From an uncultured Chloroflexia bacterium (GTDB lineage: Bacteria; Chloroflexota; Limnocylindria; Limnocylindrales; CSP1-4): a DNA stretch of 64,000 nucleotides. Position numbers and translations under genes: made by a program. Below the pieces are notes generated by a model. That model saw only the letters and a list, made by a program, of their open reading frames with translations. It was not told the origin of the DNA and did no database searches. Positions 694-64,000 of the stretch are shown here, piece after piece. The stretch is from the NCBI GenBank assembly GCA_963771795.1, contig CAVYUR010000001.1, positions 129,880 to 193,879 on the forward strand. The letters are read 5' to 3'. The stretch's first letter is position 1. Each line of letters begins with the position of its first letter.

Positions 694-708
694 CGTGTCT
701 ACCGGAGT

Positions 709-1644: not shown

Positions 1645-1652
1645 GGGCCGGA

Positions 1653-1907
1653 TCAGCCCTTCGGCGGGGTCATCGCCCGCTCGATCGCGGCGATCCGGAC
1701 CTCGATCCGGCCGATCTCGTCGACGGCGGCCCGGTGCTCCTCGCTGCCGAGCGGTGCCGCGTTCCGCTTCCGCCTCGCCGCCGTATGCCGATCGAGGAGC
1801 TCGTCGCGGGTCGCCGGGAGCTTCGTGTCGACCTTCGTCGCCTGGCCATGGGCCTTGGCCGGCGCGTGACCGCCCGCATGCCCGCCTGGCTTTTCCTGCT
1901 TCGCCAT
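1653..1907 (-). CDS. Small helical protein, DUF2630-like
   Basis: 84-aa ORF with SD GGAGGA 3 nt upstream of ATG 1907. Charged helical sequence 'RDELLDRHTAARRKRNAAPLGSEEHRAAVDEIGRIEVRI'. The family name is recalled, not verified. Confidence 0.5.
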   Translation of the reverse strand: MAKQEKPGGHAGGHAPAKAHGQATKVDTKLPATRDELLDRHTAARRKRNAAPLGSEEHRAAVDEIGRIEVRIAAIERAMTPPKG

Positions 1908-1947
1908 CGCTCCTCCTGCCTTTCCCGGAAGGGTAGCGCCTCGACGC

Positions 1948-3945: not shown

Positions 3946-4134
3946 TTGTGTCGCGATTGTCGCATACGGCCGATTGGGTGGCGGGCAGATCCTCCGATTC
4001 CGAACGCCGCGCCGATTCACCTCCGAACGCTCCGATCGTCCGAGATTGGGATCCGGAATCGGATCGCCGGGTCCGCCGCAAGTGGATTCCAGCGACGTTC
4101 GATATCGGACGGACCCTCCCGAACGCCGCGAACG

Positions 4135-4947
4135 TCAGCGGTTGCCCGACTCGGGTTCCCAGCCAGGCCGGCGCTTCTCGGTGAAGGCCCGGAACCCCTC
4201 CTGGGCTTCTTCGCTGACGCGCTGCCTGGCGATCACCCGGGCCGTGTGCCACTTCGACGACCCGTGGCCAAGCCCGCGGACCTCGCGGACGATCGCCTTG
4301 GCGGCTCGCGCTGCGGTCGGACCGGCCGCCAGGATGTCGGCGATCGCTGCGTCGACGGCCTCGTCGAGCGCACCCTCGCCCTCAACCACCTCGTGGACCA
4401 ACCCGATCCGCTGAGCGCGCACCGCATCGAAGCGACGACCGCCCGGGAACAGCGACCGGGCATGGGTCTCGCCGATCTTGGCGATGACGAACGGCGAGAT
4501 GACCGCCGGCAGGATCCCCAGCCGCGTTTCGGTGAACCCGAACCGGGCGCCGGCCTCGGCGATGACGATGTCGGCGACGGCGCACAGGCCCATCCCGCCG
4601 CCCAGCGCGGCGCCCTGGACGCGGGCGATGACCGGGACCGGGCAGGTGTCGACGGCCTCGAACATGTCGGCCAGCGCGATCGCATCCTGCTCGTTGCCCT
4701 CGACGTCGAGGGCGATCGCCGCGCGCATCCACGCGACGTCGGCGCCGGCACAGAACGACGGTCCGGCACCCGCCAGGACCACGACGCGCAGGTCCCTCGG
4801 GCCCTCTCGCGCCAGGGCGGCGAATGTCGAGCGAAGATCCGCCCCGACCGAGGCGTTGATCGCGTTGTGGACCTCGGGTCGGGTCAGCGTCACGCGGGCG
4901 ACGACCCCGCCCGGGCCGGACCGCTCCACCATCACCAGATCGCTCAT
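4135..4947 (-). CDS. Enoyl-CoA hydratase (probable methylglutaconyl-CoA hydratase)
   Basis: 270 aa with crotonase motifs 'VVVLAGAGPSFCAGADV' and 'GAALGGGMGL'. Lies between the MCCase subunit genes. TACGAT sits 6 nt upstream of the ATG. Confidence 0.8.
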   Translation of the reverse strand: MSDLVMVERSGPGGVVARVTLTRPEVHNAINASVGADLRSTFAALAREGPRDLRVVVLAGAGPSFCAGADVAWMRAAIALDVEGNEQDAIALADMFEAVDTCPVPVIARVQGAALGGGMGLCAVADIVIAEAGARFGFTETRLGILPAVISPFVIAKIGETHARSLFPGGRRFDAVRAQRIGLVHEVVEGEGALDEAVDAAIADILAAGPTAARAAKAIVREVRGLGHGSSKWHTARVIARQRVSEEAQEGFRAFTEKRRPGWEPESGNR

Positions 4948-4953
4948 GGCGGC

Positions 4954-4959
4954 ATCGTA
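4954..4959 (-). promoter_or_regulatory. -10-like TACGAT, 6 nt upstream of the enoyl-CoA hydratase ATG (leaderless candidate)
   Basis: Read on the minus strand: TACGAT gccgcc ATG. Confidence 0.4.
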
Positions 4960-4972
4960 GCCGCGGTGGTGG

Positions 4973-7075: not shown

Positions 7076-7087
7076 ACGATTGGTCGG

Positions 7088-7879
7088 TCAGCCTGCCGCC
7101 GCTGCCAGCGGTGCTGATGACAGGACCGTGATCGCATCGCCCAGCCGGATGCGGCCCGGCTGTTCTACCTCGCCGTAGACGCCGAAGTCGATGTCCCGAC
7201 CTTCCGTGAGGCCGCGGTAGGCAACGATCGTCCGAAGCGTGTCGAGGTCCCGCTCGCCGGTGTCCGGGTCCTGGGTCGTGATCGCGCAGCGTGGAACGGG
7301 GGCCGAGATCTGCATCACGACCTCGCCAAGAGCGACCCGCCCACCGACCCAGGTGTCCTCTTCGTGTGCCGCGCCGCCGCCGAGCTCGATGAGCATCCGG
7401 AAGCGACGCCCGTCGACCGAGCCCGCGCCGAGATGATGGCCGAGGATCTCGAGCGAGCCATCGGTGATCAGCGTGGCCGGGTGGGCCTTGCGAGTCCCGC
7501 CGACCCGATCGCAACGGACCAGCCGGATGGCACGGCCGCAGTAGTCGGATAGCTCGGCGGCCCAGGGCCCCTCGACGAGGTGGCCGACCGCCGGGCGCTT
7601 GTGGACGACGGACTCGATCGGCGCGCCGAGTTGGACGGCCTCGTCGATCACCGTTCCGTTCGGGAACGACAGCCGAAGCTGGGTCGCCTCTGGATCGATG
7701 TGCGCACCGATCTGGACAAGGGAGGGAACGAGCAGCCTGTCGACGAGTCGGTCGGCGTCGTCGATCAGATAGAAGCGCCGGTCCTCGACGACGCCGAGTT
7801 CGGTGAGATCGAGCTCGGTTGGGTGCTCGAGCCCGAGACTCCGGACGGGCGCGATCGAAAAGCGGACGACGTGCGGCAT
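7088..7879 (-). CDS. MOSC domain-containing protein
   Basis: 263 aa. N-terminal beta-barrel-like region plus a MOSC motif with conserved Cys, 'ISAPVPRCAITTQDPDTGERD'. TAGGAT sits 6 nt upstream of the ATG. Confidence 0.75.
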   Translation of the reverse strand: MPHVVRFSIAPVRSLGLEHPTELDLTELGVVEDRRFYLIDDADRLVDRLLVPSLVQIGAHIDPEATQLRLSFPNGTVIDEAVQLGAPIESVVHKRPAVGHLVEGPWAAELSDYCGRAIRLVRCDRVGGTRKAHPATLITDGSLEILGHHLGAGSVDGRRFRMLIELGGGAAHEEDTWVGGRVALGEVVMQISAPVPRCAITTQDPDTGERDLDTLRTIVAYRGLTEGRDIDFGVYGEVEQPGRIRLGDAITVLSSAPLAAAAG

Positions 7880-20841: not shown

Positions 20842-22348
20842 TCAGAAGACCGGCCGGCCGCCGAACGCCTGGGCCGTGAGATAGACACCGAACGCGAGCA
20901 CCACGACCGCCGCGGCGAGCGATGCGTGGCTGGCGAGGCGGCCGAGGCCGGAGCCCGAGGGAAGCCGGTCCAGCCGGCTGCGAGCGAACACCATCGCCAG
21001 GCCAACACCGGTCATCACGGCCGCCATCCCGAGGCCGAAGATCACGACCAGCAGGAACCCGAACGCGGGCCGCCCGGCGACGATCGATCCCAACAGGATG
21101 ATGAGTGCACTCGTGGAGGGAATTAGGCCGCCCGCGAGGCCCAGAGCAAACAGCCCGCGCCAGCTGATCGTCGATCCCGCGGCCGGGAGATGGGAGTGGC
21201 GGACGCCGCCGTGGCTGTGCTCGTGCTCGTGATCGTGCGCATGCCCGTGGTCGTGCGACGACGTCGCCGCTCGGGCTGCCAGCCGGCGGCGGACCTCACG
21301 CGCGAGCATCCACCCGCCGATCGCGAGGATCGTCACCGCCGCGATCATCGGGGCAACCCGGACCACGACGTCCGGCGGGAGCAGTCCCTGCGCGCCGACG
21401 ACGAGGCCCGCCAGCACGAGGATCCCCAGCGTGTGCGAGACCGTGACCGAGAGCCCGAGGCCGACCGCGTGGAGCGGCGTGCCGCGTGTGCCAACAAGAT
21501 AGGCCGCCATCAGTGTCTTGCCGTGCCCGGGCGTAAGGGCATGACCGGCGCCCAGGCCGAATGCGGTCAGCAGCGACACGAGGGCCACGAACGGGGTCAG
21601 ATCGATCTCGCGGAAGATCGCAGGCAGCTCCCCGCCGATCCCTCCGGGTACCGCGCCGGCGACCTCCGACACGGTCGCGGACCCGACCGCCACCGACCAC
21701 TGCCGGGCTCGGCGAGGCGCCGCCGGATGCCGGTTCAGGCGTGACGACGATCGTCGCCGAGCGAATGTCGATCGGCTGCGAGATGAGCTCCTCCGGATAG
21801 GCCGTCAGTCGCGCGGACGCGCTCGTCGAGGGAAGCTCGCCGGCGTCAATCGACACGCCGCTGCTCGTCGCGACGATCTCCCGCCACCCGATCCGCTCCG
21901 GATAGGAGACGTCCTCGAAGGTCACCGTCGATCGGTCGGGCGTTGCGGCGAGCTGCGCGACGAAACCGCACTCGAGCCGCATCGTCGCCAGGCCGCCGAG
22001 CCCGGCTGGGAACGTGATCGCGGCGTTCGTTGCGGTCAGCGTCGGTGCGGCCCCGTCGACCGCCAGCCGCAGGAGCTGCCGCTGCCGATCGCAGGCCGGC
22101 CCGACGGCCGCCGCGGTCTCGGCATCGGTGACGTCGCCGTCGCCGTCGGTGTCCATCGACTGGCGTTCCTGGAACGTGGGGATCTCGGCCATGTCGATCA
22201 CGACGTCGAGCCGGATCTCGCCGGGCGTCAGCGTGATTCCCGCGTAATGGTTGATCGTGAAGTTGCCGAGCGGGTGGGCGAGGACCGCGGCCGGAATTGC
22301 CGCGCAGAACACGGCGAGAGCGGCGGCCCGGAGCAGTCGACGTCCCAT
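20842..22348 (-). pseudogene. NicO/RcnA-type nickel-cobalt transporter with N-terminal extracytoplasmic domain, split by one +1 frame change near 21690-21730
   Basis: The N-terminal part ('AHPLGNFTINHY...AEIPTFQ') is in the frame of ORF 21296..22351. The TM part ('HALTPGHGKT', His-rich loop 'SHDHGHAHDHEHEHSHGG') is in the frame of ORF 20842..21693. After the junction, the first frame turns into Arg-rich nonsense. Confidence 0.6.
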
Positions 22349-33349: not shown

Positions 33350-33899
33350 ATGGTCGACGAAGCGACATCGGGGGCGTCGGCACCACTGCCTCGCTGCATG
33401 TGGTGTTCCGCGCAATTGCCATCGGACTCGGAGGTGACGTGCCCATCGTGCGGCGCGACCCTGATCGGGGAGGGTGGTGAGAGCCTCGTGCCGGGCGTCA
33501 CCGCGATCGATTTCGCAGGCGATCGTGCGCAGCACGACGGCCGCCAAGACGAAGTCGCGCAGCCGTCTGATGTCCTGGATCAGCGGCGAGTATGACGAGG
33601 GCGATAGGCCCGCGCCTCCCGGATCGGTGTCGCTGCCCTCGCCGGAAGTCCGCCGCGAGATGCTCCGCCTCGAGATCGAGGCAGAGGTCGCGCACCTCCA
33701 GGCCGAGGCCGAATCGATCGCCTCCGAGAACGCCGTCGAGCAGCTGATCCCGCTCGACGTCCTGAATGCTCCGTATCCCGTGGGAGCAGCGGTGACCCAA
33801 TCGCCCGATGCCGTCACCGCCATCGAGGCGACCTCCGACACCGCCGACGCAGCGTCCGCCGAAAACGCGCCGGCCAAAGAGGACTCGCCGACCAGCTGA
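33350..33899 (+). pseudogene. Zinc-ribbon protein with coiled-coil/acidic tail; either +1 frame-shifted near 33520-33530 or two overlapping small genes
   Basis: Frame 33341/33350 reads 'PRCMWCSAQLPSDSEVTCPSCGATLIGEGGESLVPGVTAID'. Frame 33474 reads 'AIVRSTTAAKTKSRSRLMSWISGEYDEG...EVRREMLRLEIEAEVAHLQAEAE'. TAGAGT sits 7 nt upstream of ATG 33350. Confidence 0.45.
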
Positions 33900-50569: not shown

Positions 50570-50825
50570 GCCGCCGGTACGACCAGGCGCGTCGCCCAGC
50601 GCGGGCGAACGTCCTCAGGCACGTAGAACGTCACCAAACCCCTCCGTACCACGCACGACCGGGACCATCGTCCCCGTTGCGCCCCGCAACACCCCGGGCG
50701 TACCGTAGGCCGTCTCGCCGCGAACGGCGTTGCCCTCGAGGAGCCATCGTGACCTCCCGCCGACCCACGTCCGCACGCTCGGCCGCCTCGTGAACCTCGG
50801 CTCACGGACGCCGTTCGCTGCCCGG

Positions 50826-53800
50826 ATGAGACGGCGGAACGGCCTTTCGACGGCGTTCGCTGCCCTAGTGCTCGTCTCCCAGCTCATCGGCGCGGCCCCG
50901 ATCACCGCGGCTGAGCCGGTCGTCGCGTCGCCCGATCCCGCCCTCGAATCAGGTGAGCTCCAGCCCGGCATTCACTACGCAGACGCGCTCGCCCACGCCG
51001 ACGATCGGATCGCGTTCACGCCGGGCGGCCGGGTCACCGTCCCGTTCCGGCCGCGCGCCGACGACACGTGGGAGGTCGGCGGCAAGGCGCCGCGCAGCCT
51101 GCCTGCCGGCACCCTGTCGGGCCGAGACCTGATCCCGGCGAAGGCCGGCAAGCCAGCCGCGAGCCCGGCGGCCGACCCAGAGGCGATCCCAGACGAAAGC
51201 CCCGAAGCGAGCGCCGCTCCGACCGCTCCCGTCGACGCCCCCGCCCTCGACCCGTCCGATGCCCCGGCCGCGGACGGCGCATCCGCCACGCTCCCTGGCG
51301 CGAGCCCGGATATCACCGCCGATGGGACGCGGCTCCGACGCCAGGTGATGGGCTTCCTCCCGTACTGGGAAGTCGCCGACGCACGCCTCGACTACGAGCT
51401 CCTCTCGACGATTGCCTACTTCAGCGTCGGGGCCGACCGGAACGGCAACCTCCTCAAGACTGACCCCGACGGGACGCCGACGACCGGCTGGGGTGGCTGG
51501 ACCAGCTCGCGCCTGACCTCGATCATCAACGGCGCCCATGCGAAGGGCACCCGCGTCGTCCTCACGGTCTCCGTCTTTGCCTGGACGAGCGGTCAGGCCG
51601 CGGTCCAGGGGGCGCTGCTCGGCAGCCCGACGGCGCGCCTCAACCTCGCGAAGCAGGCCGCGGCCGCCGTTCGTGCCCGCGGTGCAGACGGCATCAATCT
51701 CGACTTCGAACCGATCGCGTCGGGCTACGGCGACGAGTACGCGACGTTCGTCAGGACGGTCCGGGCCGAGCTGAACAAGCAGGCGCCGGGCTACCAGCTG
51801 ACGTTCGACACGACGGGGTCGATCGGGAACTACCCGATCGAGGCGGCGACCGCGCCGGGCGGCGCCGACGCGATCTTCATCATGGGCTACGACTACCGGA
51901 CGGCCGGCGCCGGCTGGGCGGGTTCGATCGATCCGCTGTCCGGCCCGGCGTACGACCTCCAGGACACCGTCAACGCCTTCGCCGCCCGGGTTCCGCCTTC
52001 CAAGCTCATCCTCGGCGTGCCGTGGTACGGCAGGGCCTGGTCCACGGTCTCCGACCAGGTCAACGCGAAGACCCAGTCGGGGACGAAGTACGGAACGTCG
52101 AACTCTGTCCTCTTCGACACAGCCGCCGACTACGCGCAGCAGCACGGGCGGCGCTGGGACACTCGCGAGCAGTCGTCGTGGGTCGCCTACCGGCGTCAGA
52201 ACTGCTCGTCGACGTATGGCTGCGTGATGAGCTGGCGCCAGATCTACTACGACGACGGCGTCTCGCTGAAGCTCCGCTACGACATGATCAACCGGATGGG
52301 CCTCCGCGGCGCCGGGATCTGGGCCCTCGGCTACGACGGCGACCGGACCGAGATGCGCCAGGCGCTGGCCGAGAAGTTCCTCGACGACAAGACCGTGCCG
52401 CTCGCCGGGATCAAGGCGCTCGCCCCGGTCCATGCCGCGGAGCAATTCGCGGTCTCGTGGGTTGGCTCCGACGAGAGCGGCATCCTCGACTACGACGTCC
52501 AGGTATCGATCCGTGGCGGACCGTGGCACGACTGGCTCATCGATACGAAGACGACGAGCGCCACGTACGCCGGCGCCGACGGACACGGCTTTGCATTCCG
52601 CGCCAGGGCCCGCGACGTCGCCGGCAACACCGGCGCCTGGGTCGTCACCAGCGTCTATCTCCCGCACGTGACCCTGACGCCCGGCGGCTTCGGCAAGGTC
52701 GTGGCTTCGAGCGTCAACGTCCGTTCGGCGGCAGGAACGGCCGCGCCGATCGTCACGACCGCCGCGGCGGGGACGACGCTCGCTATCACCGGCGGTCCGG
52801 TCAGCCTGAACGGCTACACGTGGTACAAGGCGACGCTGCCGATCGCTGAGTGGGCGCCCATCGCCGGCGTCCGGTCCGATGTCTGGGTCGCTGCGGGCAC
52901 GAGCGGCGCGACCTATGTCGCCCCCGTCACCGCCCCGAACGCGACGGGCGTCGATCTGCCCTCCGGGGTTGCCCCGGCCGCGGGTGCCCGGTTCGTCGGG
53001 ATCGATCCTACCCGCTTCCTCGACACGCGCTCCGGGATCGGCCTCGGCGGCACGTTCGCGAGTGGCACGCCCAGGACGTTCCCGGTCAGGGGCATCCGCG
53101 GCGTCCCCTCGAACGCGGTCGCGGTCACCGGAACGCTGACTGTCGTGGGCCAGTCGAGTGCGGGCTTCGCGAGCCTCGGGCCATCCGCGGCCACGGTTGC
53201 CCGCTCCTCGGTCGTCAACGTCCCGAAAGGCGATGTCCGGGCGGCCGGAACCACCGTCAAGCTCGGTGCCGACGGATCACTGGCGGCCCTTTGGACCGGA
53301 GCCGGTGGTTCCAAGACGAGCCTCGTCTTTGACGTGAGCGGCTACTTCGTCCCGGGCGCGACTGGCGGGACATTCACGCCGCTGGCGCCCGCTCGCGTCC
53401 TCGACACGAGGAGCGGCAACGGATTGTCCGGGGTCTTCACCGCGAGCGCACCTCGGTCCTTCCTCGTCCGGGGCCGCGGCGGCGTCCCGGCCGGGGCTGT
53501 CGCGGTGACCGGCAACCTCACGGTGGTCGGGCCGTCCAGCGCCGGATTCCTGTACGTCGGGCCGGTTGCCGTGGCGACGCCGCCCGGCTCGAGCCTCAAC
53601 GTCCCTCGGGGCGATGTCCGTGCGGCGTCGGTGACCGTCAAGCTCGACGCGGGCGGTCGGTTGGGCATCGTCTGGAAAGGCGATCCTGGTGCGACGGCCC
53701 ACATCCTGTTCGACGTCACCGGCTACTTCGTCAACGGGGCCGGCGGCGCGACCTTCTACCCGATCGACGCGGCCCGCGTGCTCGACAGCCGGACCGGCAA

Positions 53801-54116
53801 CGGCCTCTCAGGCGCCTTCGCGAGCCTCGGGACCCGGGTGTTCCAGGCGACCGGTCGCGGGACGATCCCGGTGAACGCCGTTGCAGTGATCGGCGGAGCG
53901 ACGATCGTGAGCCCGACCGGGAACGGCCTGCTCATCATCGGTCCGGCCGGCATGACGCTCGGCTCCACATCGACGATCAACGTCCCGAAGGGCGATATCC
54001 GGGCGAACGGCCTCACCGTCCGCACGGGTGCGGGCGGCGGTCTCGGGGCGGTCTACAACGGTCCGCGAGGGGCTTCGGCACACGTGATCTTCGACGCCAC
54101 GGGTTACTTCCGCTGA
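50826..54116 (+). CDS. Large secreted multidomain GH18 (chitinase/peptidoglycan-hydrolase-like) protein with SH3-like domain and three C-terminal ~120-aa repeats
   Basis: ATG 50826 with a signal peptide. GH18 block 'GFLPYWE...ADGINLDFE...IMGYDY...GAGIWALGYD'. SH3b-like 'VNVRSAAG...GYTWYKATL'. Three 'RVLDTRSG...GYF' repeats. Confidence 0.8.
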   Translation: MRRRNGLSTAFAALVLVSQLIGAAPITAAEPVVASPDPALESGELQPGIHYADALAHADDRIAFTPGGRVTVPFRPRADDTWEVGGKAPRSLPAGTLSGRDLIPAKAGKPAASPAADPEAIPDESPEASAAPTAPVDAPALDPSDAPAADGASATLPGASPDITADGTRLRRQVMGFLPYWEVADARLDYELLSTIAYFSVGADRNGNLLKTDPDGTPTTGWGGWTSSRLTSIINGAHAKGTRVVLTVSVFAWTSGQAAVQGALLGSPTARLNLAKQAAAAVRARGADGINLDFEPIASGYGDEYATFVRTVRAELNKQAPGYQLTFDTTGSIGNYPIEAATAPGGADAIFIMGYDYRTAGAGWAGSIDPLSGPAYDLQDTVNAFAARVPPSKLILGVPWYGRAWSTVSDQVNAKTQSGTKYGTSNSVLFDTAADYAQQHGRRWDTREQSSWVAYRRQNCSSTYGCVMSWRQIYYDDGVSLKLRYDMINRMGLRGAGIWALGYDGDRTEMRQALAEKFLDDKTVPLAGIKALAPVHAAEQFAVSWVGSDESGILDYDVQVSIRGGPWHDWLIDTKTTSATYAGADGHGFAFRARARDVAGNTGAWVVTSVYLPHVTLTPGGFGKVVASSVNVRSAAGTAAPIVTTAAAGTTLAITGGPVSLNGYTWYKATLPIAEWAPIAGVRSDVWVAAGTSGATYVAPVTAPNATGVDLPSGVAPAAGARFVGIDPTRFLDTRSGIGLGGTFASGTPRTFPVRGIRGVPSNAVAVTGTLTVVGQSSAGFASLGPSAATVARSSVVNVPKGDVRAAGTTVKLGADGSLAALWTGAGGSKTSLVFDVSGYFVPGATGGTFTPLAPARVLDTRSGNGLSGVFTASAPRSFLVRGRGGVPAGAVAVTGNLTVVGPSSAGFLYVGPVAVATPPGSSLNVPRGDVRAASVTVKLDAGGRLGIVWKGDPGATAHILFDVTGYFVNGAGGATFYPIDAARVLDSRTGNGLSGAFASLGTRVFQATGRGTIPVNAVAVIGGATIVSPTGNGLLIIGPAGMTLGSTSTINVPKGDIRANGLTVRTGAGGGLGAVYNGPRGASAHVIFDATGYFR
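52992..54113 (+). repeat. Three tandem protein-level repeats (~120 aa each) at the C-terminus of the GH18 protein
   Basis: Repeat units start near 52992, 53372 and 53752. Shared skeleton: 'F..I/L...R.LD(T/S)R(S/T)G.GL.G.F......F.V.G.GG(V/I)P..AVAV.G.LT(V/I)V.P...GF....P.......S..NVP.GD(V/I)RA....V.....G.L......G.......(L/I)FD(V/A)(S/T)GYF'. Confidence 0.85.
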
Positions 54117-54165
54117 GGGGTACCGAGAGGACGATCGGCCAGGTTCGCACGGCACAGGCCGGGTC

Positions 54166-54171
54166 TACACT
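54166..54171 (+). promoter_or_regulatory. -10-like TACACT, 9 nt upstream of the Ppm1-like ATG
   Basis: TACACT ggcccgacc ATG. Confidence 0.35.
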
Positions 54172-54180
54172 GGCCCGACC

Positions 54181-55086
54181 ATGACGACCCCGCGGCGCCG
54201 CAAGGCAGCCCCCGAGAGCGCCGAGCCAGTCCTCGGAGCCGGAGCGTGGGTCGTGCTGCCGACCTACAACGAGGCGGAGAACATCCGGACGATCTCGCCC
54301 GCGATCCTTGCCGCGCTGCCGGGTGCCACGCTCCTCGTCGTCGACGACGGGTCCCCGGACGGCACGGGTGCGATCGCCGACGAGCTCGCCCGGGCCAACA
54401 ACAGGATCCGCGTCCATCACCGGCCCGAGAAGCAGGGCCTCGGGCGGGCCTACCTGGGCGGGTTCGGCGTTGCGCTCGCCGGTGGCGCCGACATCGTCAT
54501 CCAGATGGACGCCGACTGGTCGCATGATCCGGCCGCACTGCCGGCGCTCATCGCTCCGATCGGCGGCGGCACGGCCGACCTCGTGATCGGGTCCCGTTAC
54601 ACGAAGGGCGGTGGGGTCGTCGACTGGGGCCTCGGGCGCCGCATGATCTCGCGCGGCGGAAGCATCTTCGCCCGGAACGTGCTGCGCCTCGGGCCGCGGG
54701 ACCTCACAGGCGGCTTCAAGGCATGGCGCGCCTCGACGCTCGCGTCGATCCCGTTCGACGGGGTCCACGCCGGCGGCTACGTCTTCCAAATCGAGATGAC
54801 GTTCCGCGCATCGCGCAGCGGCGGGCGGGTCGCCGAGGTCCCGATCACGTTCCGAGATCGCCGCGTCGGCCAGTCGAAGATGAGCCGGCGGATCGTCGTC
54901 GAGGCGCTCGTCGTCGTCGTGACGCTCCGCGCCGAAGAGCTCCTCGGGCGAGTCCGCGGGCGCGGCCGGCGACAGATCGCCGGCGTCCCCAGGCCGAAGA
55001 GCCAGGCGGCAAGCGAGGCGTTGCCAGACGGTGACGTGGCGCTACCGGCCGCGCTCGACGTGCCCGCCGCCGGCGAGGGCCGGTGA
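54181..55086 (+). CDS. Polyprenol-phosphate mannosyltransferase-like GT2 (Ppm1/DPM1-like)
   Basis: 301 aa. 'VVLPTYNEAENI', 'VVDDGSPDGT', 'QMDADWSHDP', 'GSRY..GG'. Confidence 0.85.
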   Translation: MTTPRRRKAAPESAEPVLGAGAWVVLPTYNEAENIRTISPAILAALPGATLLVVDDGSPDGTGAIADELARANNRIRVHHRPEKQGLGRAYLGGFGVALAGGADIVIQMDADWSHDPAALPALIAPIGGGTADLVIGSRYTKGGGVVDWGLGRRMISRGGSIFARNVLRLGPRDLTGGFKAWRASTLASIPFDGVHAGGYVFQIEMTFRASRSGGRVAEVPITFRDRRVGQSKMSRRIVVEALVVVVTLRAEELLGRVRGRGRRQIAGVPRPKSQAASEALPDGDVALPAALDVPAAGEGR

Positions 55087-56411
55087 CCGGCGAAGTCCAC
55101 GGGCCTCTCGGGACGGCGGATCCAGATCGCTCGGAGCACCCAATTCCGGGCGTCCGGGTCGTCCTCGACGCCCGACCGCTGCAGGAGCCGGATCGCGCAC
55201 CGCTGACGGCGAGCTACCTCGCCGGCCTGCTCGGAGCCTTCGATGCCGAGCCGATCGCGGGCGAGTCGTTCGCCCTGCTGCTCGGCTCCGACCTAGATGA
55301 CCCGACGGAGCGGTTCGAGCACCTCTCGGTCGTCGGCCGACGACTCCTGCCACCGACGCGGCTGCTCCGCTCCGGCGCGATGACCGTCGACCCGTTCGTT
55401 CTCTCCGGAGCCTCGATCGGGGCGGCGTGGCGAGCGGATCGGGCGGGTGCCGCGGGCGCCGTCTACCACGCGGTCGGGGGGTCGATCCCACTCATGACCG
55501 GTCTACCACTGATCGTCACTCTCCTCGACCTTGCGCCGTGGGAGCTGCCGGGCGCCTACCAGCGCGGGACCGCTGCGCGCTTCGGCCAGCGGCTTCGTGG
55601 GCGGCTGCTCCGCGACGCGGCGGCCGTCATCGTCGGGACCGAGGCCGTCGCCGTCGCCGCCCGCCGGCTGCTCCGGATCCGCCGCGATCGGATCCGGGTC
55701 GTCTCTCTCGCCCCTCGGCCGGCATTCTGTGTTGACGGCGCGACGAACGGGGCAGGGCAAGGGGCCAAGCGGGGATGGGCGCCGCACGGCGACCCACGCG
55801 CCGAGCGCGAGCGCCTCGGCCTGCCGGAGCGCTATGTCATCTACTCGGGCCGGTACGACGCCCGCCAGGATCTCGCGACCCTGCTGCGCGCGCTGGCCGA
55901 GCTAGCCGCCGTCGGCCGGCCCGACGGCCTTCCGGATGACGCCCCATGGCCGCCCCGCGTGCTCTTTGCCGGAGCCTCGCCTGACGATCGTGCGGCGCTG
56001 GCGCGGGCGGCGGCACGGGAGGGCGTCGGCGAGACGATCGCCTACGCGCCACGCCTCGACGACGAGCGGCTGGCGAGCCTCGTCCGCGGTGCGCGGGCGG
56101 CGCTCCTCCCCGTGCTTTCGGACAGCACGGGCCAGGCCGCGATCGAGGCGATCGCCTGCGGCATCCCCGTCGTTGCGTCGGCCGTCGGCGCGCTCCCCGA
56201 GATCGTCGGAGGCGCCGGGATCCTGGTCGAGCCTCGCGACCCGGCGCGCCTCGCCCAGGCCCTCGCGACGGCGTTCGTCGACGATCGCGTCCACGGCGCC
56301 CTCGCCGAGATCGCGCTCGAGCGCGCGACCACCGATCGGCGGACCTGGTCCGATGTCGCCCGCGAGACCCGCGTCATCTACGCGGAGTCGGCCGCCCGGA
56401 GGCGCCGCTGA
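55083..56411 (+). CDS. GT4-family (GT-B) glycosyltransferase
   Basis: 442 aa with GTGA overlap. C-terminal 'LLPVLSDSTGQAAIEAIACGIPVVASAVGALPEIVG..G.LVEP' (EX7E-type). Confidence 0.8.
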   Translation: MTGEVHGPLGTADPDRSEHPIPGVRVVLDARPLQEPDRAPLTASYLAGLLGAFDAEPIAGESFALLLGSDLDDPTERFEHLSVVGRRLLPPTRLLRSGAMTVDPFVLSGASIGAAWRADRAGAAGAVYHAVGGSIPLMTGLPLIVTLLDLAPWELPGAYQRGTAARFGQRLRGRLLRDAAAVIVGTEAVAVAARRLLRIRRDRIRVVSLAPRPAFCVDGATNGAGQGAKRGWAPHGDPRAERERLGLPERYVIYSGRYDARQDLATLLRALAELAAVGRPDGLPDDAPWPPRVLFAGASPDDRAALARAAAREGVGETIAYAPRLDDERLASLVRGARAALLPVLSDSTGQAAIEAIACGIPVVASAVGALPEIVGGAGILVEPRDPARLAQALATAFVDDRVHGALAEIALERATTDRRTWSDVARETRVIYAESAARRRR

Positions 56412-56419
56412 CGATCGAG

Positions 56420-57619
56420 CTAGCTCTCGTCCAGTCCCGAGTCGAACGGATCCGGCGGAGGCGGCGGAACGCCTGGCTTGATCGTCACCTTCGTGCCGGT
56501 CTGCATGACCTGGACGAACGTCTGCCCGACGGTCAGCTTGACGACCTTGCCCTTGGCATCGAAGAAGAGCGTCGGCTTCGTCAGGGAGTCCTTCCGCCAC
56601 GTGCCCTTGATGGTCGTCCCGTTCGTCGAGATCCACGCGGTTCCCTTGCCGACAACCTGTGCCTCGAGGCGGTTCTTCCTCGAGCCGTCGTTCAGCGGCC
56701 CGAACTTCATCAGCATGATCACGACGTTCTTCGGGGCGACGCGGGCGCCGGTCGCCGCGTCGACCTGCTTCTTTTCGCCGGTGACCGACCGCAGGTACGT
56801 GTTCGACGTCCAGTCGTAGTCGTAGCGAATCTTGTTGGCGGAGTAGCCGACGTCGATCCGGCCACCGCGGGGCCGGAACGACGCCTGGAGATCCGGGCCG
56901 AAGGTCCAGGCCGGTGTCATCGGCCCGTCTGTCGCCTTGACCGACTTGGCGAGGCTCCGGAGGTGCTTGCCGTCCGTGTAGAGGTTGTGCGGCGCGTACC
57001 GGTCCTTGACGCGCCAGAACGACTTCGCCCAGCGGAACTCGTCGGCGTTGTAGACGAGCTGCCCTTGGCCTTTCGAGCGAAGCGTCTGGAGCGCCTGCGG
57101 TGAGCCGCCCGCGTGGGCGTAGACGGCCCGCCACTCGGCGGCCCAGGCGATGTAGTAGTAGCGCGCGCTCCGGACGGGTCCAACGGCAGCCGGAATGTTC
57201 TCCTGGAAGATCAGCATGTAGCGCGGGATTCCGCCTTCGGCGGGCGCCTGCCAGACGACCGATGCCGCGTTGAACCCGGATTGCGGCCGAGCCGCGCTCA
57301 GGTCGTCGACCATCACCGCGATCGGGTGCTGGGCGGCGACCGCCGGCGGCACGAGACGGCCGGTCAGCGGCGCCGGTACGGGAACGGGCGTGGGAACGGG
57401 TGTCGGCGAAGGCGTCGGCGTGGGAACGGGCGTCGGCGAGGGCGTTGGGGTCGGGCTCGGCGTCGCGGTCGCGGACGGCGACGGGCTGGCCGCGGCGACC
57501 TGGCTCGGGCTGCCTGACGCCCCGGGCGCTGCGGCAGCAGCGAGGATCCCGAATCCGAGGCCGGCGGCGACGGCCGCAACGGCCAGGATCGCGACCAACG
57601 GTCGTTTCATCGGAGACAC
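56420..57619 (-). CDS. DUF3048 (YerB-like) secreted/lipoprotein
   Basis: 399 aa (or start at ATG 57610). Signal sequence, a Pro/Thr/Ser linker, then 'PIAVMVDDLSAARPQSGFN.ASVVWQAPAEGGIPRYMLIFQ', which is typical of DUF3048. Confidence 0.8.
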   Translation of the reverse strand: MSPMKRPLVAILAVAAVAAGLGFGILAAAAAPGASGSPSQVAAASPSPSATATPSPTPTPSPTPVPTPTPSPTPVPTPVPVPAPLTGRLVPPAVAAQHPIAVMVDDLSAARPQSGFNAASVVWQAPAEGGIPRYMLIFQENIPAAVGPVRSARYYYIAWAAEWRAVYAHAGGSPQALQTLRSKGQGQLVYNADEFRWAKSFWRVKDRYAPHNLYTDGKHLRSLAKSVKATDGPMTPAWTFGPDLQASFRPRGGRIDVGYSANKIRYDYDWTSNTYLRSVTGEKKQVDAATGARVAPKNVVIMLMKFGPLNDGSRKNRLEAQVVGKGTAWISTNGTTIKGTWRKDSLTKPTLFFDAKGKVVKLTVGQTFVQVMQTGTKVTIKPGVPPPPPDPFDSGLDES

Positions 57620-57846
57620 GGCGTCTGGGAGTCCATGGTGCCTCGAGGCTTGGTGCAGGATCGCGCAGCTTGTGACGGCGCCGTCGAGTCGACGGTGACG
57701 GTGCCCACCGAGTTCCGACGCCGCAGGATACCCCAGCGACCGCGCGGCGCCATCTCGGCCGAGCGTAAGGTCGATCGAGGACGCAGCCGTGCGTCACGCG
57801 GTAGGCTGCCTGCAGACACCACGCCCGAGCCAGAGCGAGGGAACCA

Positions 57847-58740
57847 ATGCCCGACGAAGAGCAGCCCGACGCCGCAGCCGACGAACCGACGGCAGAGACC
57901 CCGCCAACGGACGGAGAGCCAGGCGGCGCCGACGCGCTCGCGAACGCCGAAGAGGCGGCGATCCTCGAGGCCGCCGCGGAGGCGGCGAGGGTGGATCCGG
58001 CAAAGACCGAGCTTGCGCCGAGCGAGGAAGGCAGCGACGCCGACGCGGGCTCCGCCGAGACAACGGATACGACCTCGGACGAGCCTGCCGCCGACGAGCC
58101 GGCCGCGGACGAGGCGGCCGCCGATGAGCCGGCCGCCGACACGGCCCCGCCGGAGCCCGCCAAGGAAGCCCCGGCCAAGGAAGCCAAGCCGACCGTCATC
58201 CGGCCGAAGGAAACGACGAGCCGCAAGGCTGCCGCGAAACCCCGTCCGGGCCTCGCCGCGTCCGCCACGGCCCTCGAGACGTCGCCGGCCCGCCTTGATC
58301 CTGCCCTCACGAGGCTCGATTCCGTCCTGATACGGGATCGCAGCACAGAGCAGGTCACCGCGACCAACCTCGACGTCAGCCGCGGCGGAATCGGCCGGGC
58401 GCAGGCTGTCGATATCGCGGTCTCGCAGGGCGGGATCGGCATGGCCAGGGGCGATCGCGTCTCGGTCGAGATGGGGGCCGTGGGGGCGGCGATCGCCGGC
58501 GAGGTCCGTGTGACCCAGGGTGCCGTCGGCACCGTCCTTGCCCGCGACGTCCGCATCGAGCAGGCCGCCGTCAGGACGATCGTCGCCAACAACGTCCGGT
58601 TCGAGCGGACGACCGGGGTCCTCGTGCTCCTCGCGCGACGCGTCGAAGGCAATGTGCGCGTGCTGCTCGACTGGCGCGGCGCGCTCGCGTTTGGAGCGGC
58701 GTTCGGCGTGATCGTGTCGATTTTCCGGCGCCGGAAATAG
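57847..58740 (+). CDS. Acidic disordered N-terminus + ~15-aa beta-solenoid-like repeats + C-terminal TM anchor; unknown function
   Basis: 297 aa. 'DEPAADEPAADEAAADEPAAD'. Repeats 'VSRGGIGRAQAVDIA / VSQGGIGMARGDRVS / VEMGAVGAAIAGEVR / VTQGAVGTVLARDVR / IEQAAVRTIVANNVR'. Ends 'ALAFGAAFGVIVSIFRRRK'. Confidence 0.55.
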   Translation: MPDEEQPDAAADEPTAETPPTDGEPGGADALANAEEAAILEAAAEAARVDPAKTELAPSEEGSDADAGSAETTDTTSDEPAADEPAADEAAADEPAADTAPPEPAKEAPAKEAKPTVIRPKETTSRKAAAKPRPGLAASATALETSPARLDPALTRLDSVLIRDRSTEQVTATNLDVSRGGIGRAQAVDIAVSQGGIGMARGDRVSVEMGAVGAAIAGEVRVTQGAVGTVLARDVRIEQAAVRTIVANNVRFERTTGVLVLLARRVEGNVRVLLDWRGALAFGAAFGVIVSIFRRRK

Positions 58741-58796
58741 GCGCGTCTCGCGTCGCGCCCGACGGCCTTCTGAAGGGCCGCGGGACCGGGCTCGGC

Positions 58797-58802
58797 TATA
58801 CT
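58797..58802 (+). promoter_or_regulatory. -10-like TATACT upstream of the Wbp-type gene string (~70-nt leader, SD AGGAG)
   Basis: Lies in the 136-bp gap after the 57847..58740 gene. It is preceded by an imperfect hairpin, GGCCTTCTGAAGGGCC. Confidence 0.3.
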
Positions 58803-58876
58803 CGACGACCGGCCTGCGCCCCTCGCGCGATCGCTCGTCCGCAGACCCGGTCCCGCTGATAGGAGCCCACCGACAC

Positions 58877-59550
58877 GTGATCGATCCCTCCGCGCGCGTC
58901 CACGCGACCGCGGATCTCGAATCCGATGTGAACGTCGGGGCCGGGACGAGCATCTGGCACCGGGCCCAGCTCAGGGCGGGCGCCACGGATCGGGTCTGAA
59001 TGCGTCATCGGTCGAGACGTGTTCATCGATGAGGGCGTGTCGATCGGCGACCGGGTCAAGATCCAGAACGCCGCGCTGGTCTACCACGGCGTCACCGTCG
59101 AGGACGGCGTCTTCATCGGCCCCGGGGCAATCCTGACCAACGACCGCTACCCGCGGGCGATTACCTCGACCGGCGAGCTCGCAACGCGCCACCGACTGGA
59201 AGGTCTCGCCGATCACCGTCCGCTACGGCTCATCGGTCGGAGCCGGTGCCGTCGTCGTGGCCGGCGTCGAGGTCGGCCGCTTTGCGACCGTCGGTGCCGG
59301 AGCCGTCGTGACCCGGAGCGTCCCGAACCACGCCCTCGTCGCGGGCAGCCCGGCCCGCAGGATCGGCTGGGTGTGCGCCTGCGGGGCGCGCCTCGTCGAC
59401 GCCAACGGCGATCCTGTCCAGGCCGAGCCCGGTCGCTATGCCGCCCGCACGGATCTCCTCTGCGCCAACTGCGGCCGCCGCTACGCCTACGTCCCTGATG
59501 CCGAGACGCTCGAGGAGCGATCCGGCCCGCGCCAAGGAGCACCAGCATGA
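58877..59550 (+). pseudogene. WbpD/WlbB-type left-handed-beta-helix N-acetyltransferase, reading frame broken twice (+1 near 58985 and 59193)
   Basis: SD AGGAG, then GTG 58877. The three segments read 'VIDPSARVHATADLESDVNVGAGTSIWHRAQLRAGA', 'RIGSECVIGRDVFIDEGVSIGDRVKIQNAALVYHGVTVEDGVFIGPGAILTND' and 'DWKVSPITVRYGSSVGAGAVVVAGVEVGRFATVGAGAVV...GSPARRIGWVC', each in a successive frame. Confidence 0.7.
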
Positions 59551-60701
59551 TCCCGATCGCCCGTCCCGATCTCGGCCCCGAAGAGCTTGAGGCGGTGACG
59601 GAGGTCCTCGGGAGCGGGATGATCGCCCAGGGGCGCAAGGTCGCGGAACTCGAGGAACGCTGGGCGGAGTTCATCGGCGTCCGCCATGCGATCGCCATGG
59701 TCGAACGGCACCGTTGCCCTGATGTCGATCTTCTCGGGGATCGGCCTCGAGCCCGGCGACGAGGTGATCACGGTCTCCCACACGTTCGCCGCGACCGCGA
59801 ACGCGATTCTGTATACCGGCGCGACGCCGGTCTTCATCGACATCGAGCCCGACACCTACCTCATCGACGCGAAGCAGATCGAGGCCGCGATCACGCCGCG
59901 GACCAGGGCGATCTGCCCGGTCCACCTCTTCGGGCTCGTCGCCGACATGGACATGATCCAGGGCGATCGCCGACCGCCACGGGCTCGCCGTCGTCGAGGA
60001 CGCCTGCCAGGCCCACGGCGCGACGTTCCGCGGCCGCAAGGCGGGCAGCTTCGGCCACGGCGCATTCAGCCTCTACGCGACGAAGAACATGACGACGGCC
60101 GAGGGCGGCTTCGTCACGACCAACGACGACGGCTGGCCGACTGGCTGCGCCTCTATCGCAACCAGGGCATGCGGGCCCGCTACCAGTTCGAGATGCTCGG
60201 CTTCAACTTCCGGCTGACCGACCTCGCCGCCGCGATCGGGCTCGCCCAGCTCGCCAAGCTCGCCGCGCAACACGGCCCGCCGCCAGGCGATCGCGGCCGC
60301 GCTACGACGACGGCATTCGGCGAGCTGCCGATCGGCCTGCCGATCACGCCCGACGGCCGGACCCACGTCTTCCACCAGTACACGATCGACGTCGGCGGAG
60401 CGCGCGACGCGATCGTCGCCGACCTCCGCGAGGCCGGCGTCGGGGCGGACATCTACTACCCGATCCCCGTCCATCGCCAGGCATACATCATGGAGCGGGG
60501 CCTCCACGCGGACCTGCCGGTGACCGACGCCGCCGCGGCGCGGACGCTTGCCCTGCCGATGTTCCCCGGCCTGACCGACGCGGAGCAGGACGCAGGTGAT
60601 CGACGCGCGTCAGGACGGCCGTCGGGCGCCACCTCGGCGCCGGCACGGCGAGCGGCGCGACCGCGGTCGCAGCACCCGACGCCGGTATCGCCGCCCGATG
60701 A
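59547..60701 (+). pseudogene. WbpE/DegT-type PLP aminotransferase, about 8 frame changes
   Basis: The segments 'MIPIARPDLGPEELEAV', 'NGTVALMSIFSGIGLEPGDEVITVSHTFAATANAI', '[49 protein letters not shown]', 'LRLYRNQGM', 'RRQAIAA', 'THVFHQYTI' and 'YYPIPVHRQ' alternate between frames. Changes lie near 59703, 59962, 60131(-1), 60265, 60302, 60316, 60592 and 60608. Confidence 0.7.
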
Positions 60702-60722
60702 TCGGAGCCTGGCGCCCGGCCG

Positions 60723-61761
60723 GTGATCGCGCCGCTGCGCGTCGGCCTGGCGGGTCTCGGGTCGATGGGCCGCAACCACCTGCGGATCCTCGCCGGACGC
60801 ACGGACCTGCGCCTCGTCGCCGTCGCCGATCCCGTCGCCGAGGCGCTCGAGGCAGCGACAGCCGATCTCCGGCGCCCAGGGTTTCGCCGAACCGCTGGCG
60901 ATGATCGCGGAGGCCGAGCTCGACGCGATCGTCGATCGCCGCGCCGACCACCGCCCACGTGCCCCTTGCCCTCGCGGCGATCGAGCGCGGGATCGGCCGG
61001 TCCTCGTCGAGAAGCCGCTCGCGGCCACGGTCGATGAGGGGATGCGCGATCGTCGCACGCGGCGCGAGACCGCGGCGTGCCCGTCCAGGTGGGCCACGTC
61101 GAGCGGTTCAACCCCGCCGTCCTCGAGCTCGGCCGGCTGCATCGGCGAGGGCTGGCTGTCGGCCGGTCTACGCGATCGCCTCGCGCCGGGCCGGCCCGTT
61201 CCCGGCCAGGATCCGGGACGTCGGGGTGACCGTCGACCTCGCGACCCACGACGTCGACATCCTCTCGTGGATCGCCGGCGAGCGGCCGACGCGCGTTTAC
61301 GCCGAGACTGCCCAGCGAATCCACGCCGACCACGAGGATCTGCTCTTCGGGCTGCTCCACTTCCCGTCCGGGTGCCACCGGGATGCTCGACGTCAACTGG
61401 CTGACGCCGGCCAAGCGACGCCAGCTCGTCGTCGTCGGCGAGGAGGGGATGTTCGAGCTCGACTACCTGACCCAGCGCCTGACCTTCACCAGGGCGACCG
61501 ACACGACCAACCCGCGCCTGATCGGCGGCTACGCGCCGACCTTCGAGGGCGAGGTGGCCGAGCTTCCGGTCGCCTCCGCCGAGCCGCTCGCGGCGGAGCT
61601 GGACGCGTTCCTCGGGATCGTCAGGAACGGCGGCCGGCCGATCGTCGACGCCGAGGACGGCCTGTGGGCCGTTGCCGTGGCCACGTCCCTGCTCGAAGTC
61701 GGCGGCGGGTGGCAACGCGATCGATCTGTCCGCGCTGTCCGCGCGGTTCGCCCTCGCATGA
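60723..61761 (+). pseudogene. WbpB/Gfo-Idh-MocA-type NAD oxidoreductase, about 9 frame changes
   Basis: The segments 'LRVGLAGLGSMGRNHLRIL', 'IAAPTTAHVPLALAAIERGI', 'PVLVEKPLA', 'VPVQVGHVERFNPAV', 'VYAIASRRAGPFPARIRDVGVTVDLATHDVDI' and 'MLDVNWLTPAKRR' are spread over all three frames. Changes lie near 60864, 60934, 60996(-1), 61048, 61067, 61140, 61165, 61373 and ~61708. Confidence 0.7.
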
Positions 61762-63201
61762 CGATCGTCGTCGCGACCGACGCGCGGTGCCAAGTCCCTC
61801 CTCGGGGGCTCGATCGAGCTGCCGGTCAACGCGTGCGGCCACGAGCCAGGCGGTCGAGGTCAGCCCGTGGACGGGCGAGCCCGGAACGGCCGGCCGGGTC
61901 GCGGTCGTCGGCGCCGGCAAGATGGGCCTGCCGCTGGCAGCCCAGTTCGCAGGCCACGGCTGGCGCGTCATCGCGGTCGACGTCCAGCAGGCGGTCGTCG
62001 ACGCGATCAACGAGGGCCGATCGCACGTCGAGGAGGAGCCGGGGCTCGCCGAGCTGGTCCGCGCGGCGCACGATCGCGGGCCGACTCCGAGCCACGACCG
62101 ATGGCGCCGCCGCAGCCCGTCGAGGCCGACGTCGTCGTGCTCATCGTGCCGGTCATGCTCGACGACGAGCAGCAGCCCGACTATCGCTACATGGACGCGG
62201 CGGTCGACGCCGATCGCCCCGGGCGTCCATGCCGGCTCGCTCGTGATCTTCGAGACGACGCTGCCGGTCGGCGACACGCGGGAACGGTTCACGCCCCGGC
62301 TCGAGGCGGCGTCCGGGCTCAAGGCGGACGAGGACTTCTTCGTGGCGTTCTCGCCGGAGCGGCTCTACAGCGGCGCAGCGCTCCGCAACCTCGCGACCTA
62401 CCCGAAGCTCGTCGGCGGGATCGGGCCGGCCTCCACGGCCCGGGCGGCGGCGTTCTACGACGCGGTCCTCGACACCGAGATCGTCGCGATGTCGCAACGC
62501 CGAGGCGGCCGAGTTCAGCAAGCTCGCCGACACGACCTATCGCGACGTCAACATCGCCCTCGCCAACGAGTTCGCCCGCTACGCCGAACGGATCGGCGTC
62601 GACATCCACGAGGTGATCGCCGCGGCGAACAGCCAGCCCTACTCCCACATCCATCAGCCCGGCCTCGGGGTCGGCGGGCACTGCATCCCGGTCTATCCGC
62701 ACTTCCTCCTGTCGCGCGCGCCGGAGCTCGAGCTCGTGGAGCTGTCGCGTCGAACGAACGACGGCCAGGTCGGCGTCGCGATCAAGGCCCTTCGAGCAGG
62801 AGCTCGGCGGCCTGCGAGGGGGTCCCGATCCTCGTCCTCGGCCTGACCTACCGCCACGGCGTCAACGAGCTCGCCTACTCACGGGCCCTGCCGCTGATCG
62901 AGCGGCTCATCCACCAGGGCGCCGTCGTGTCGGCCTTCGACCCGCTGCTGGACGCCGAGGAGATCGAGCGCATCGGCGCCGTCGCCGTGGCGCTGGGGCG
63001 AGCCGGGTCCGTTCCGGGCGATCGTCACCCAGACGGCGGATCCGCTCTTCGCGACGCTCGACCCGGGCCTGGTTCCCGGAACTCGCGGTCGTGTTCGACG
63101 GCCGCGACAGCCTCCGAGACCTCGTCCTGCCAGACGGCGTCGCCTACCGCGGGATCGGCGTGCCCGGACGGGCCGCCGCCGCTGCTCCGACCGCGAGCTG
63201 A
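61758..63201 (+). pseudogene. WbpA-type nucleotide-sugar (UDP-GlcNAc/ManNAc) 6-dehydrogenase, at least 8 frame changes
   Basis: The segments 'RVAVVGAGKMGLPLAAQFA', 'VEADVVVLIVPVMLD', 'IAPGVHAGSLVIFETTLPVGDT', 'FFVAFSPERL', 'NAEAAEFSKLADTTYRDVNIALANEF', 'GLGVGGHCIPVYP' and 'VPILVLGLTYRHG' alternate frames. Changes lie near 62078, 62118, 62212, 62495, 62790, 62821, 62984 and 63069. The first ~40 codons are unresolved. ATGA overlap with the upstream gene. Confidence 0.65.
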
Positions 63202-63261
63202 TCGCTCCTGCACGGCGCTGCGGGCGCCACCCCAGCGAACGCCACGCACTAGGCTGACCCG

Positions 63262-64000
63262 GTGCGAATCGTCAGCGTCGTCGGGACGCGCCCCCAGCTG
63301 ATCAAGGCCGCGGCGCTGCTGCCGGTGCTGCGGCGCCGTCACGACGACGTCTTCGTCGACACCGGCCAGCACTGGGACGACGCGATGGCCGGTGACTTCT
63401 TCGCCGAGCTCGGCCTGCCGCAGCCGGATCATGCCCTCGGGATCGGGGGCGGCTCGGCGGCCGACGCAGATCGGGCGGATGCTGCCGTCGATCGCGACCG
63501 GTCCTCGCGGATGAGCGTCCGGATGCCGTGCTCGTCTACGGCGACACGAACTCGACCCTCGCGGGCGCCCTCGCGGCGTCGAAGCTCGGCGATCCCGGTC
63601 GCCCATGTCGAGGCCGGCCTGCGCAGCTTCGACCGGCGGATGCCCGAGGAGACAACCGGGTCGTCGACCGACCACCTGTCGCGCTGGCTCTTCGCGCCGA
63701 CCCCGACGGCGGTCGCGAACCTCGCTGCCGAGGGAATCGCCGACGGCGTCGTCCTCGTCGGCGACCTGATGCAGGACCTGGCAGCCCGCGTTGCCGCGGA
63801 GGTCCGCGACGGGGCGGCCGTGCTCCCGTCGATCGCCCGGCGATTTGGCCTGGACCTCGCGCCCGGCGGCTATCTGTTCGCGACGATCCACCGTGCCGAG
63901 AACCGCAGCCTCGAAGCAATCCGTGCCTGGGCGGCGCTCCTCGCCGCGGCGGCGAGCCCGGACCGACCGGTCGTCCTCGCTCTCCACCCGGGGACGCGCG
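63262..64000 (+). pseudogene. WbpI/WecB-type UDP-GlcNAc(3NAcA) 2-epimerase, 5' part (runs off the window), 5 frame changes
   Basis: GTG 63262, 'RIVSVVGTRPQLIKAA'. Frame jumps follow near 63460, 63500, 63591, 63652(-1) and 63666, around '[30 protein letters not shown]', '[20 protein letters not shown]', 'NRVV' and 'TDHLS'. The frame is clean from 63667 to the window end. Confidence 0.7.

Follow-up and report, generated by a model that had tools for sequence, protein, structure and literature searches.

Frame-changing insertions packed into a Wbp/Wlb-like operon of an uncultured Limnocylindria bacterium are very probably errors of a strain-merging long-read consensus

The pathway to uridine diphosphate (UDP)-2,3-diacetamido-2,3-dideoxy-mannuronic acid is known as Wbp in Pseudomonas aeruginosa and as Wlb in Bordetella. 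The same five enzyme families are clustered in one operon at the right end of the DNA analyzed here, a stretch of 64,000 nucleotides (the window) from an uncultured bacterium of the Chloroflexota (assembly GCA_963771795.1, contig CAVYUR010000001.1, positions 129,880 to 193,879). The locus differs from the described pathways in its Chloroflexota host and in that its proteins score below the specific NCBIfam equivalog cut-offs, the likeness being known from sequence matches. It differs further in its deposited state, as each of the five genes is broken by frame changes. An earlier note, made from the letters of the window, had drawn attention to this burst of broken frames and favored an artefact over inactivation of the pathway. 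We are confident that the 35 breaks recorded here are consensus errors of a long-read metagenome assembly that merged strains, and that they do not reflect biological inactivation.

Frameshifted genes are familiar from gene decay, from sequencing error and from consensus sequences that merge strains. Bacterial pseudogene decay is deletion-biased. It can likewise leave neighboring genes with multiple frameshifts each, but the present locus lacks deletion bias, substitution load, internal stops and relaxed selection. Indel errors of Nanopore and PacBio continuous-long-read sequencing resemble the present events in being single-base, private to one assembly, disruptive to open reading frames (ORFs) and gone on correction, and indels and frameshifts are a known problem of long-read metagenome-assembled genomes (MAGs) made without short-read polishing (PMC9262707). 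Classical long-read errors sit in homopolymers and are spread genome-wide according to coverage, whereas those described here involve no long homopolymer, are ~94% insertions, are packed into ~5 kb and match alleles. Another known case is the strain-collapsed consensus of metagenomes and diploids, in which two close genotypes are polished together and trouble is localized where they are similar. Its usual outcome is a mosaic of alleles with chimerism at the substitution level, whereas this locus appears to retain both alleles in tandem, with +1 frameshifts.

Loci for comparison were fetched via relatives of the aminotransferase encoded in the cluster. This gave 80 loci, all from Chloroflexota of the class Limnocylindria and many of them Microflora Danica (MFD) long-read MAGs; the source genome was not included. 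More than 40 of these loci share the synteny of the five genes, at nucleotide identities of 75-86%. Positions 58741-64000 of the window, which has a G+C content of ~70%, were aligned with 17 orthologous Limnocylindria loci using MAFFT, and difficult spots were checked by eye. The alignment revealed 35 frame-changing indels private to the window between 58986 and 63666 (4.7 kb), at a mean spacing of 138 nt, none of which is present in any of the 17 orthologous loci. Of these, 32 are one-base insertions, one is a two-base insertion (60996-60997) and two are one-base deletions (60132 and 63652), so that insertions outnumber deletions 33:2. A 3-nt insertion (61786-8) and a 3-nt deletion (63173) lie in variable stretches or termini and are probably natural. 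The earlier note had claimed at least 32 frame changes; all 32 of its break points were recovered within 12 nt and with the correct sign, and the burst proved larger by three events (60730, 61769 and 61848). Its frame hops are needed to read the genes, since the homologues share none of them.

In a three-frame forward translation, conserved enzyme segments switch frame from ~58.9 kb onward, nearly always by +1. A codon-periodicity hidden Markov model (HMM) returned gene-sized segments up to 58.8 kb and 1-6 phase switches per 4-kb bin up to 56 kb; the two bins that follow have 10 and 16. A 7-kb control region (50600-57650) contained zero window-private insertions of 1-2 nt. Of the 38 events in the whole window, 35 are found within the final 7.8% of its length (binomial probability 1e-35). 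The right limit of the burst lies beyond view, as the window ends 334 nt past the last event.

The identity of the inserted bases carries the interpretation. For 27 of the 31 single insertions, relatives have the extra base as an allele at the neighboring column, where the window itself has a different base. When composition-matched bases were inserted at random in 20,000 simulations, the expected number of such doublets was 11.1 ± 2.7 and the maximum 23. For example, a site at which relatives have GTC or GTG reads GTCG in the window, CTG/CTC reads CTCG and CGG/CAG reads CAGG. The two bases of the doublet are C and G in 18 of the 27 cases, and only four are transitions, a class that makes up 44-54% of the changes among close relatives (P = 0.001 or less). 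A C/G-rich, transition-poor set of doublets is as expected from a consensus model that penalizes transversion mismatches. Both deletions take out a base of a variable codon. To judge from the letters, it is as though the two alleles had been entered one after the other at strain-variable sites and, rarely, neither of them. The earlier note had also invoked insertion-biased sequencing chemistry, which is not required given that the inserted bases match adjacent alternative alleles.

The contexts of the events, all on the plus strand, are heterogeneous and non-repetitive, with no common motif, slippery site or simple-sequence tract on inspection. None of the insertions falls within a homopolymer of at least 4 bases; the longest run is three, in three cases. 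Homopolymer slippage was accordingly ruled out as a cause.

An independent contig marks where the burst begins. The 297-aa protein encoded just upstream of the cluster is found in identical form on a 1865-bp Logan contig, ERR11593888_612768 (L001), from run ERR11593888. L001 equals window positions 57200-58980 exactly (1781 bases). At 58981 it has A where the window has C, the inserted base at 58986 is absent from it, and it translates unbroken. The un-inserted version of the first site therefore exists in reads, and L001 is independent of the window's consensus step, whatever the read type of the run. The first difference of any kind, at 58981, sets the left edge of the burst and falls within the bracket of 58741-58985 that the earlier note had given for its start. 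Further copies of the cluster from the same strain were sought: in searches with the corrected proteins, no match covering most of the query exceeded 94% identity, the 399-aa neighbor protein had no exact match, and a short query for fragments gave a lone 100% match (P0301, 42% coverage), located on a frameshift-ridden contig of 87% identity.

The corrupted stretch thus spans 58981..63666, opening with the single-nucleotide polymorphism (SNP) relative to L001 and holding 35 frame-changing consensus errors. Except where another source is named, the individual events were read from the alignment. The first, at 58986, is an extra base in CAC|GGATC (C/G doublet) where L001 reads CACGATC. At valine codons, extra G's at 59703 and 60934 form GTC/GTG doublets and an extra C at 61769 a GTG/GTC doublet. 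Leucine codons have an extra C at 60261 (CTG/CTC) and extra G's at 61139 and 62814 (CTC/CTG), alanine codons have extra G's at 60299 and 60607 (both GCC/GCG), and serine codons have an extra G at 61370 (TCC/TCG) and an extra C at 62495 (TCG/TCC). An extra A at 61848 lies in a proline codon (CCG/CCA), while arginine codons carry an extra G at 62078 (CGC/CGG) and an extra T at 62120 (CGC/CGT). Other codon doublets are formed by an extra A at 59960 (CGG/CAG) and an extra G at 62794 (CAG/GAG), both alleles being found in relatives in each case, and by an extra C at 60311 (GAG/GCG), G at 60592 (GAC/GAG), A at 61696 (GAG/AAG), T at 62982 (GCG/GTG) and C at 63465 (GAG/GAC). An extra C makes a C/G doublet at 60730, a G/C doublet at 61045 and an A/C doublet at 63498; an extra A makes a C/A doublet at 61057; and an extra G makes a C/G doublet at 62209 and a doublet with an adjacent variable site at 63591. 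The bases without a matching allele in relatives are A at 59183, T at 60866, C at 61163 and G at 63065. The two-base insertion at 60996..60997 adds GC, with a net frame change of -1. At 60132 a base is absent within a highly variable codon. The other -1 event, at 63652, is the absence of the variable third base of an ACG/ACA codon, so that neither allele is written; it was recognized by eye, MAFFT having taken it as mismatches, and it is compensated by the insertion at 63666, a G/A doublet (GCC/ACC, both in relatives) likewise inspected by eye.

The same pattern recurs in other long-read contigs of the lineage. Counted against 16 intact relatives, contig L078 (MFD05747.bin.2.90) has 11 one-base insertions and 1 deletion, L082 (ERZ25039569 contig_117896) has 30 and 3, and L083 (ERZ25039531 contig_135378) has 35 and 4. 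Doublets account for 8/11, 28/30 and 31/35 of these insertions, respectively, and for 17/19 in L078 when a longer alignment is used. The three contigs have Flye-style names and represent different species, and their doublets are mostly C/G. Loci from short-read MAGs have few or no private frame-changing indels in the cluster. The claim of the earlier note that the breaks are confined to the five Wbp-type genes holds for the left side of the burst in the window and fails as a rule: the burst in L078 starts in gene 1 and runs on into downstream glycosyltransferase genes, and L083 (a 67-kb contig, locus 170-7320) has 33 private one-base insertions also over the 7 kb that precede the cluster. C-terminal aminotransferase fragments of 56-135 aa have been called as genes on contigs of 58-558 kb (P0247, P0251, P0283, P0298 and others), which suggests that this gene is broken in many long-read assemblies. 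The Microflora Danica long-read MAGs were assembled with metaFlye (nano-hq) followed by one round of Medaka, and the methods consulted mention no short-read polishing (PMC12313526).

A feature of the locus itself may explain why the errors gather here. In 8 of 8 locus pairs, identity within the five-gene cluster exceeds that of the preceding 8 kb and of the following 4.5 kb by 3-10 percentage points; one pair, for example, shows identities of 83/92.6/87% upstream, within and downstream of the cluster. This higher conservation would cause strains to collapse at this place. The island of conservation hints at unusually strong constraint on the operon or at its exchange among Limnocylindria.

We propose that relatives occurring together in the sample would be distinguishable in the flanks, whereas inside the cluster their similarity would let the reads collapse and cross-map. 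From about 58981 on, reads of a second close strain would have been merged onto the contig. At a single-base difference between the strains, both alleles would then be kept side by side, as in GTC/GTG to GTCG, with a +1 shift as the result; rarely neither allele would be kept, giving -1. With two alleles X and Y at about half of the reads each, a consensus of the form XY costs one deletion per read, and a consensus X costs a mismatch in every read carrying Y, so the doublet would win wherever a deletion is cheaper than the mismatch fraction. This should be likeliest for C/G transversions, since sequencing errors of that kind are rare. Writing neither allele would cost an insertion in every read and should seldom win. 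A cost model in which deletion is cheaper than mismatch would account for both the +1 bias and the C/G excess. The window would then derive from a Nanopore pipeline of the metaFlye plus Medaka type.

Several observations weigh against this explanation. The two read populations on which it depends are inferred, as are the platform and pipeline behind the window. The independent assembly L001 spans just the first of the 35 sites. For 4 of the 31 insertions no matching allele was found in relatives, and the doublet sites are at the third codon position in 15 of 26 cases, with 14 synonymous, where within-species SNPs usually give more. In addition, 16 of the 35 events lie within 6 nt of a GATC (24% expected, P = 0.004), and limited literature searches for the exact doublet signature found general statements on long-read indels and strain collapse and no description of it. 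Nine events are near CGATCG, and the enrichment for GATC/CGATCG has a P of about 0.003 with eight motifs tested. Methylation or another effect of the motif was rejected as a general cause, since the GATC enrichment is not seen in L078, L082 or L083.

The earlier note had offered an unpolished, low-coverage or strain-heterogeneous consensus, and its artefact reading is borne out by the private nature of the indels, the restoration of five ORFs, the normal substitutions and the absence of the first insertion from L001. Among its variants, strain heterogeneity stands, the inserted bases being alleles of neighboring sites, and random low-coverage noise does not. Residual random error in a poorly covered or unpolished stretch, such as one close to where a contig stops, would require no second strain; it would also be limited to a single sequence, would also leave substitutions normal and would also yield intact ORFs once removed. 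The window ends soon after the burst, so that a contig end is possible, and three isolated +1 breaks elsewhere in the window indicate some background error. Random error nevertheless predicts about 11 allele matches among 31 insertions rather than 27, and it predicts no two-thirds share of C/G pairs. The usual description of Nanopore noise ties it to homopolymers and deletions (PMC9262707), yet no site lies in a long homopolymer, and the SNP at 58981 against an otherwise identical L001 marks the arrival of another set of alleles. We thus regard random error as improbable. Programmed recoding or phase variation, by ribosomal +1 frameshifting, transcriptional slippage or slipped-strand switching at repeats, would fit the fact that nearly all shifts are +1 and that surface-polysaccharide genes are classic phase-variable loci. 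No slippery motif or simple-sequence tract is common to the sites, expression of genes with five to ten shifts each would be unworkable, and 0 of 17 orthologues need any shift, which together leave this explanation with next to no credibility.

A true and very recent inactivation of the whole pathway by ~35 small insertions takes the deposited sequence at its word, as the indels do stand in it, and surface-glycan loci are sometimes lost. Divergence from the nearest relatives at codon positions 1/2/3 is 7.1/5.2/30.4%, compared with 7.1/5.1/33.0% for a pair of intact sequences, and the window has 18 private substitutions at otherwise invariant columns, a number inside the range of the other sequences. 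Purifying selection on the five genes is undiminished. The tally of insertions against deletions proposed in the earlier note runs opposite to deletion bias, and 35 indels without a substitution load and with a 33:2 excess of insertions are unlike bacterial gene decay. Segments contain no in-frame stops, and the bias toward third positions is unchanged. In prokaryotes, substitutions are stated normally to far exceed indels in number (10.1101/2025.09.05.674543, with a citation). L001, identical over 1781 bases, lacks the first insertion, and the same pattern occurs in three long-read contigs of different species and not in short-read MAGs. Pseudogene formation, the alternative that the earlier note had kept in view, is on these grounds very unlikely. 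There is a similarly slight chance that the insertions are physically present in a living subpopulation, for example because strains recombined and the resulting heteroduplex mismatches were repaired aberrantly, with both alleles kept in tandem at SNP sites. If true, a strongly conserved sugar pathway would have been inactivated within a very short time. The strain-merging consensus remains by far the most probable source of the 35 breaks.

When the private insertions are removed and the deletions filled, five uninterrupted ORFs result, and the corrected frames are free of stops. In genes 1-4 the stop of one gene and the start of the next share an ATGA (59547-59550, 60698-60701 and 61758-61761), indicating that the operon is probably translationally coupled. 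At the level of families, the five genes match a Wbp/Wlb-like operon for a sugar of the UDP-2,3-diacetamido-hexuronic-acid type. Gene 1 (58877..59550, plus strand, as are all five) is predicted to encode a left-handed beta-helix (hexapeptide-repeat) N-acetyltransferase of the WbpD/WlbB type; it has a GTG start and 2 errors. The Logan gene call on L001 uses the same GTG start (58877), runs unbroken across 58986 and agrees with relatives. The corrected product matches the NCBIfam NeuD/PglB/VioB model (2e-24), and its best PDB match is 3mqg (2e-37). Gene 2 (59547..60701, 8 errors) would specify a DegT-family pyridoxal phosphate (PLP) aminotransferase of the WbpE type, with a corrected product of 382 aa that is 93% identical across 100% of its length to the 381-aa protein P0001. 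WbpE is among its top matches (PDB 3nyu, 2.5e-72), with perosamine synthetase scoring slightly higher. Gene 3 (60698..61761, 10 errors, corrected product 350 aa) is a putative Gfo/Idh/MocA oxidoreductase, a UDP-N-acetylglucosamine (GlcNAc) or UDP-GlcNAcA 3-dehydrogenase of the WbpB/WlbA type. A 227-residue stretch of it is 93% identical, over the full stretch, to 350-aa proteins; for gene 2 over its full length and gene 3 over this stretch, identities to full-length homologues range from 91 to 93%. The NCBIfam UDP-GlcNAc 3-dehydrogenase model matches gene 3 at 7e-80 with a score of 268.7, below its cut-off of 450, and the best PDB match is 3q2k. We take 3mqg and 3q2k to be the WlbB and WlbA of Bordetella.

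Gene 4 (61758..63201, 10 errors, corrected product 477 aa) appears to encode a nucleotide-sugar 6-dehydrogenase of the WbpA/WecC type. At 337.6 bits it exceeds the TIGR03026 cut-off of 189.8, the sole subfamily cut-off passed among the five genes; the score against the N-acetylmannosamine (ManNAc) dehydrogenase model is 254, below the cut-off of 750. Gene 5 (63262..64000, 5 errors), a predicted non-hydrolysing UDP-GlcNAc 2-epimerase of the WecB/WbpI type, continues past the window end and matches TIGR00236 at 4e-50 over the 245 aa inside the window.

The end of the gene 1 protein is conserved among relatives. Its C-terminus (~59400-59520) forms a Cys-rich tail with two Cys pairs (WVCACG ... 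LLCANCG) resembling a small zinc ribbon. The tail lies outside the match to 3mqg, a WlbB-type protein of 192 aa that covers query residues 13-179 only. Just upstream of the operon, the gene at 57847-58740 encodes an acidic, low-complexity protein rich in Ala, Pro and Glu, whose C-terminal half is repetitive and rich in Gly and Val and which ends in a hydrophobic segment. This protein has no Pfam match, and metagenome contigs of the Joint Genome Institute (JGI) offer nothing closer than 60%.

Three isolated breaks elsewhere in the window had also been reported in the earlier note, and they fared unevenly. The +1 break in rskA, a gene for an anti-sigma-K factor, at 24048/9 is confirmed by Pfam, with zf-HC2/RskA_N in one frame and RskA_C in the next. 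The others are a possible +1 break at 21739-21740 (minus strand), between an N-terminal secreted domain and a NicO permease, where Pfam supports the NicO half only, and a possible +1 break at ~33500-33625 in a zinc-ribbon gene, without Pfam support. Both are plausible, and either could instead reflect separate genes. At 1676-1952 (minus strand), the HMM switches through phases -0, -2, -1 and -0 within 280 nt in an apparent single gene, which may be another compensated pair of indels.

The biological significance of the burst is low, and the value of the locus is as a warning for annotation. The ORF list of the window contains the 780-aa ORF at 60959..63301 to which the earlier note had pointed, and it is a chimera. 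The same defect is present in other public long-read contigs of the lineage, and aminotransferase fragments have already entered protein databases. The tandem-allele signature, consisting of +1 changes only, outside homopolymers, mostly C/G and beside variable sites, can be read without the reads, and it could be used to flag or repair strain-collapsed stretches in catalogues of long-read MAGs. In the organism itself, the sugar-nucleotide operon is almost certainly ordinary and intact; automated annotation will turn it into chimeric ORFs or pseudogenes in this record, with the result that a conserved cell-envelope pathway is under-counted.

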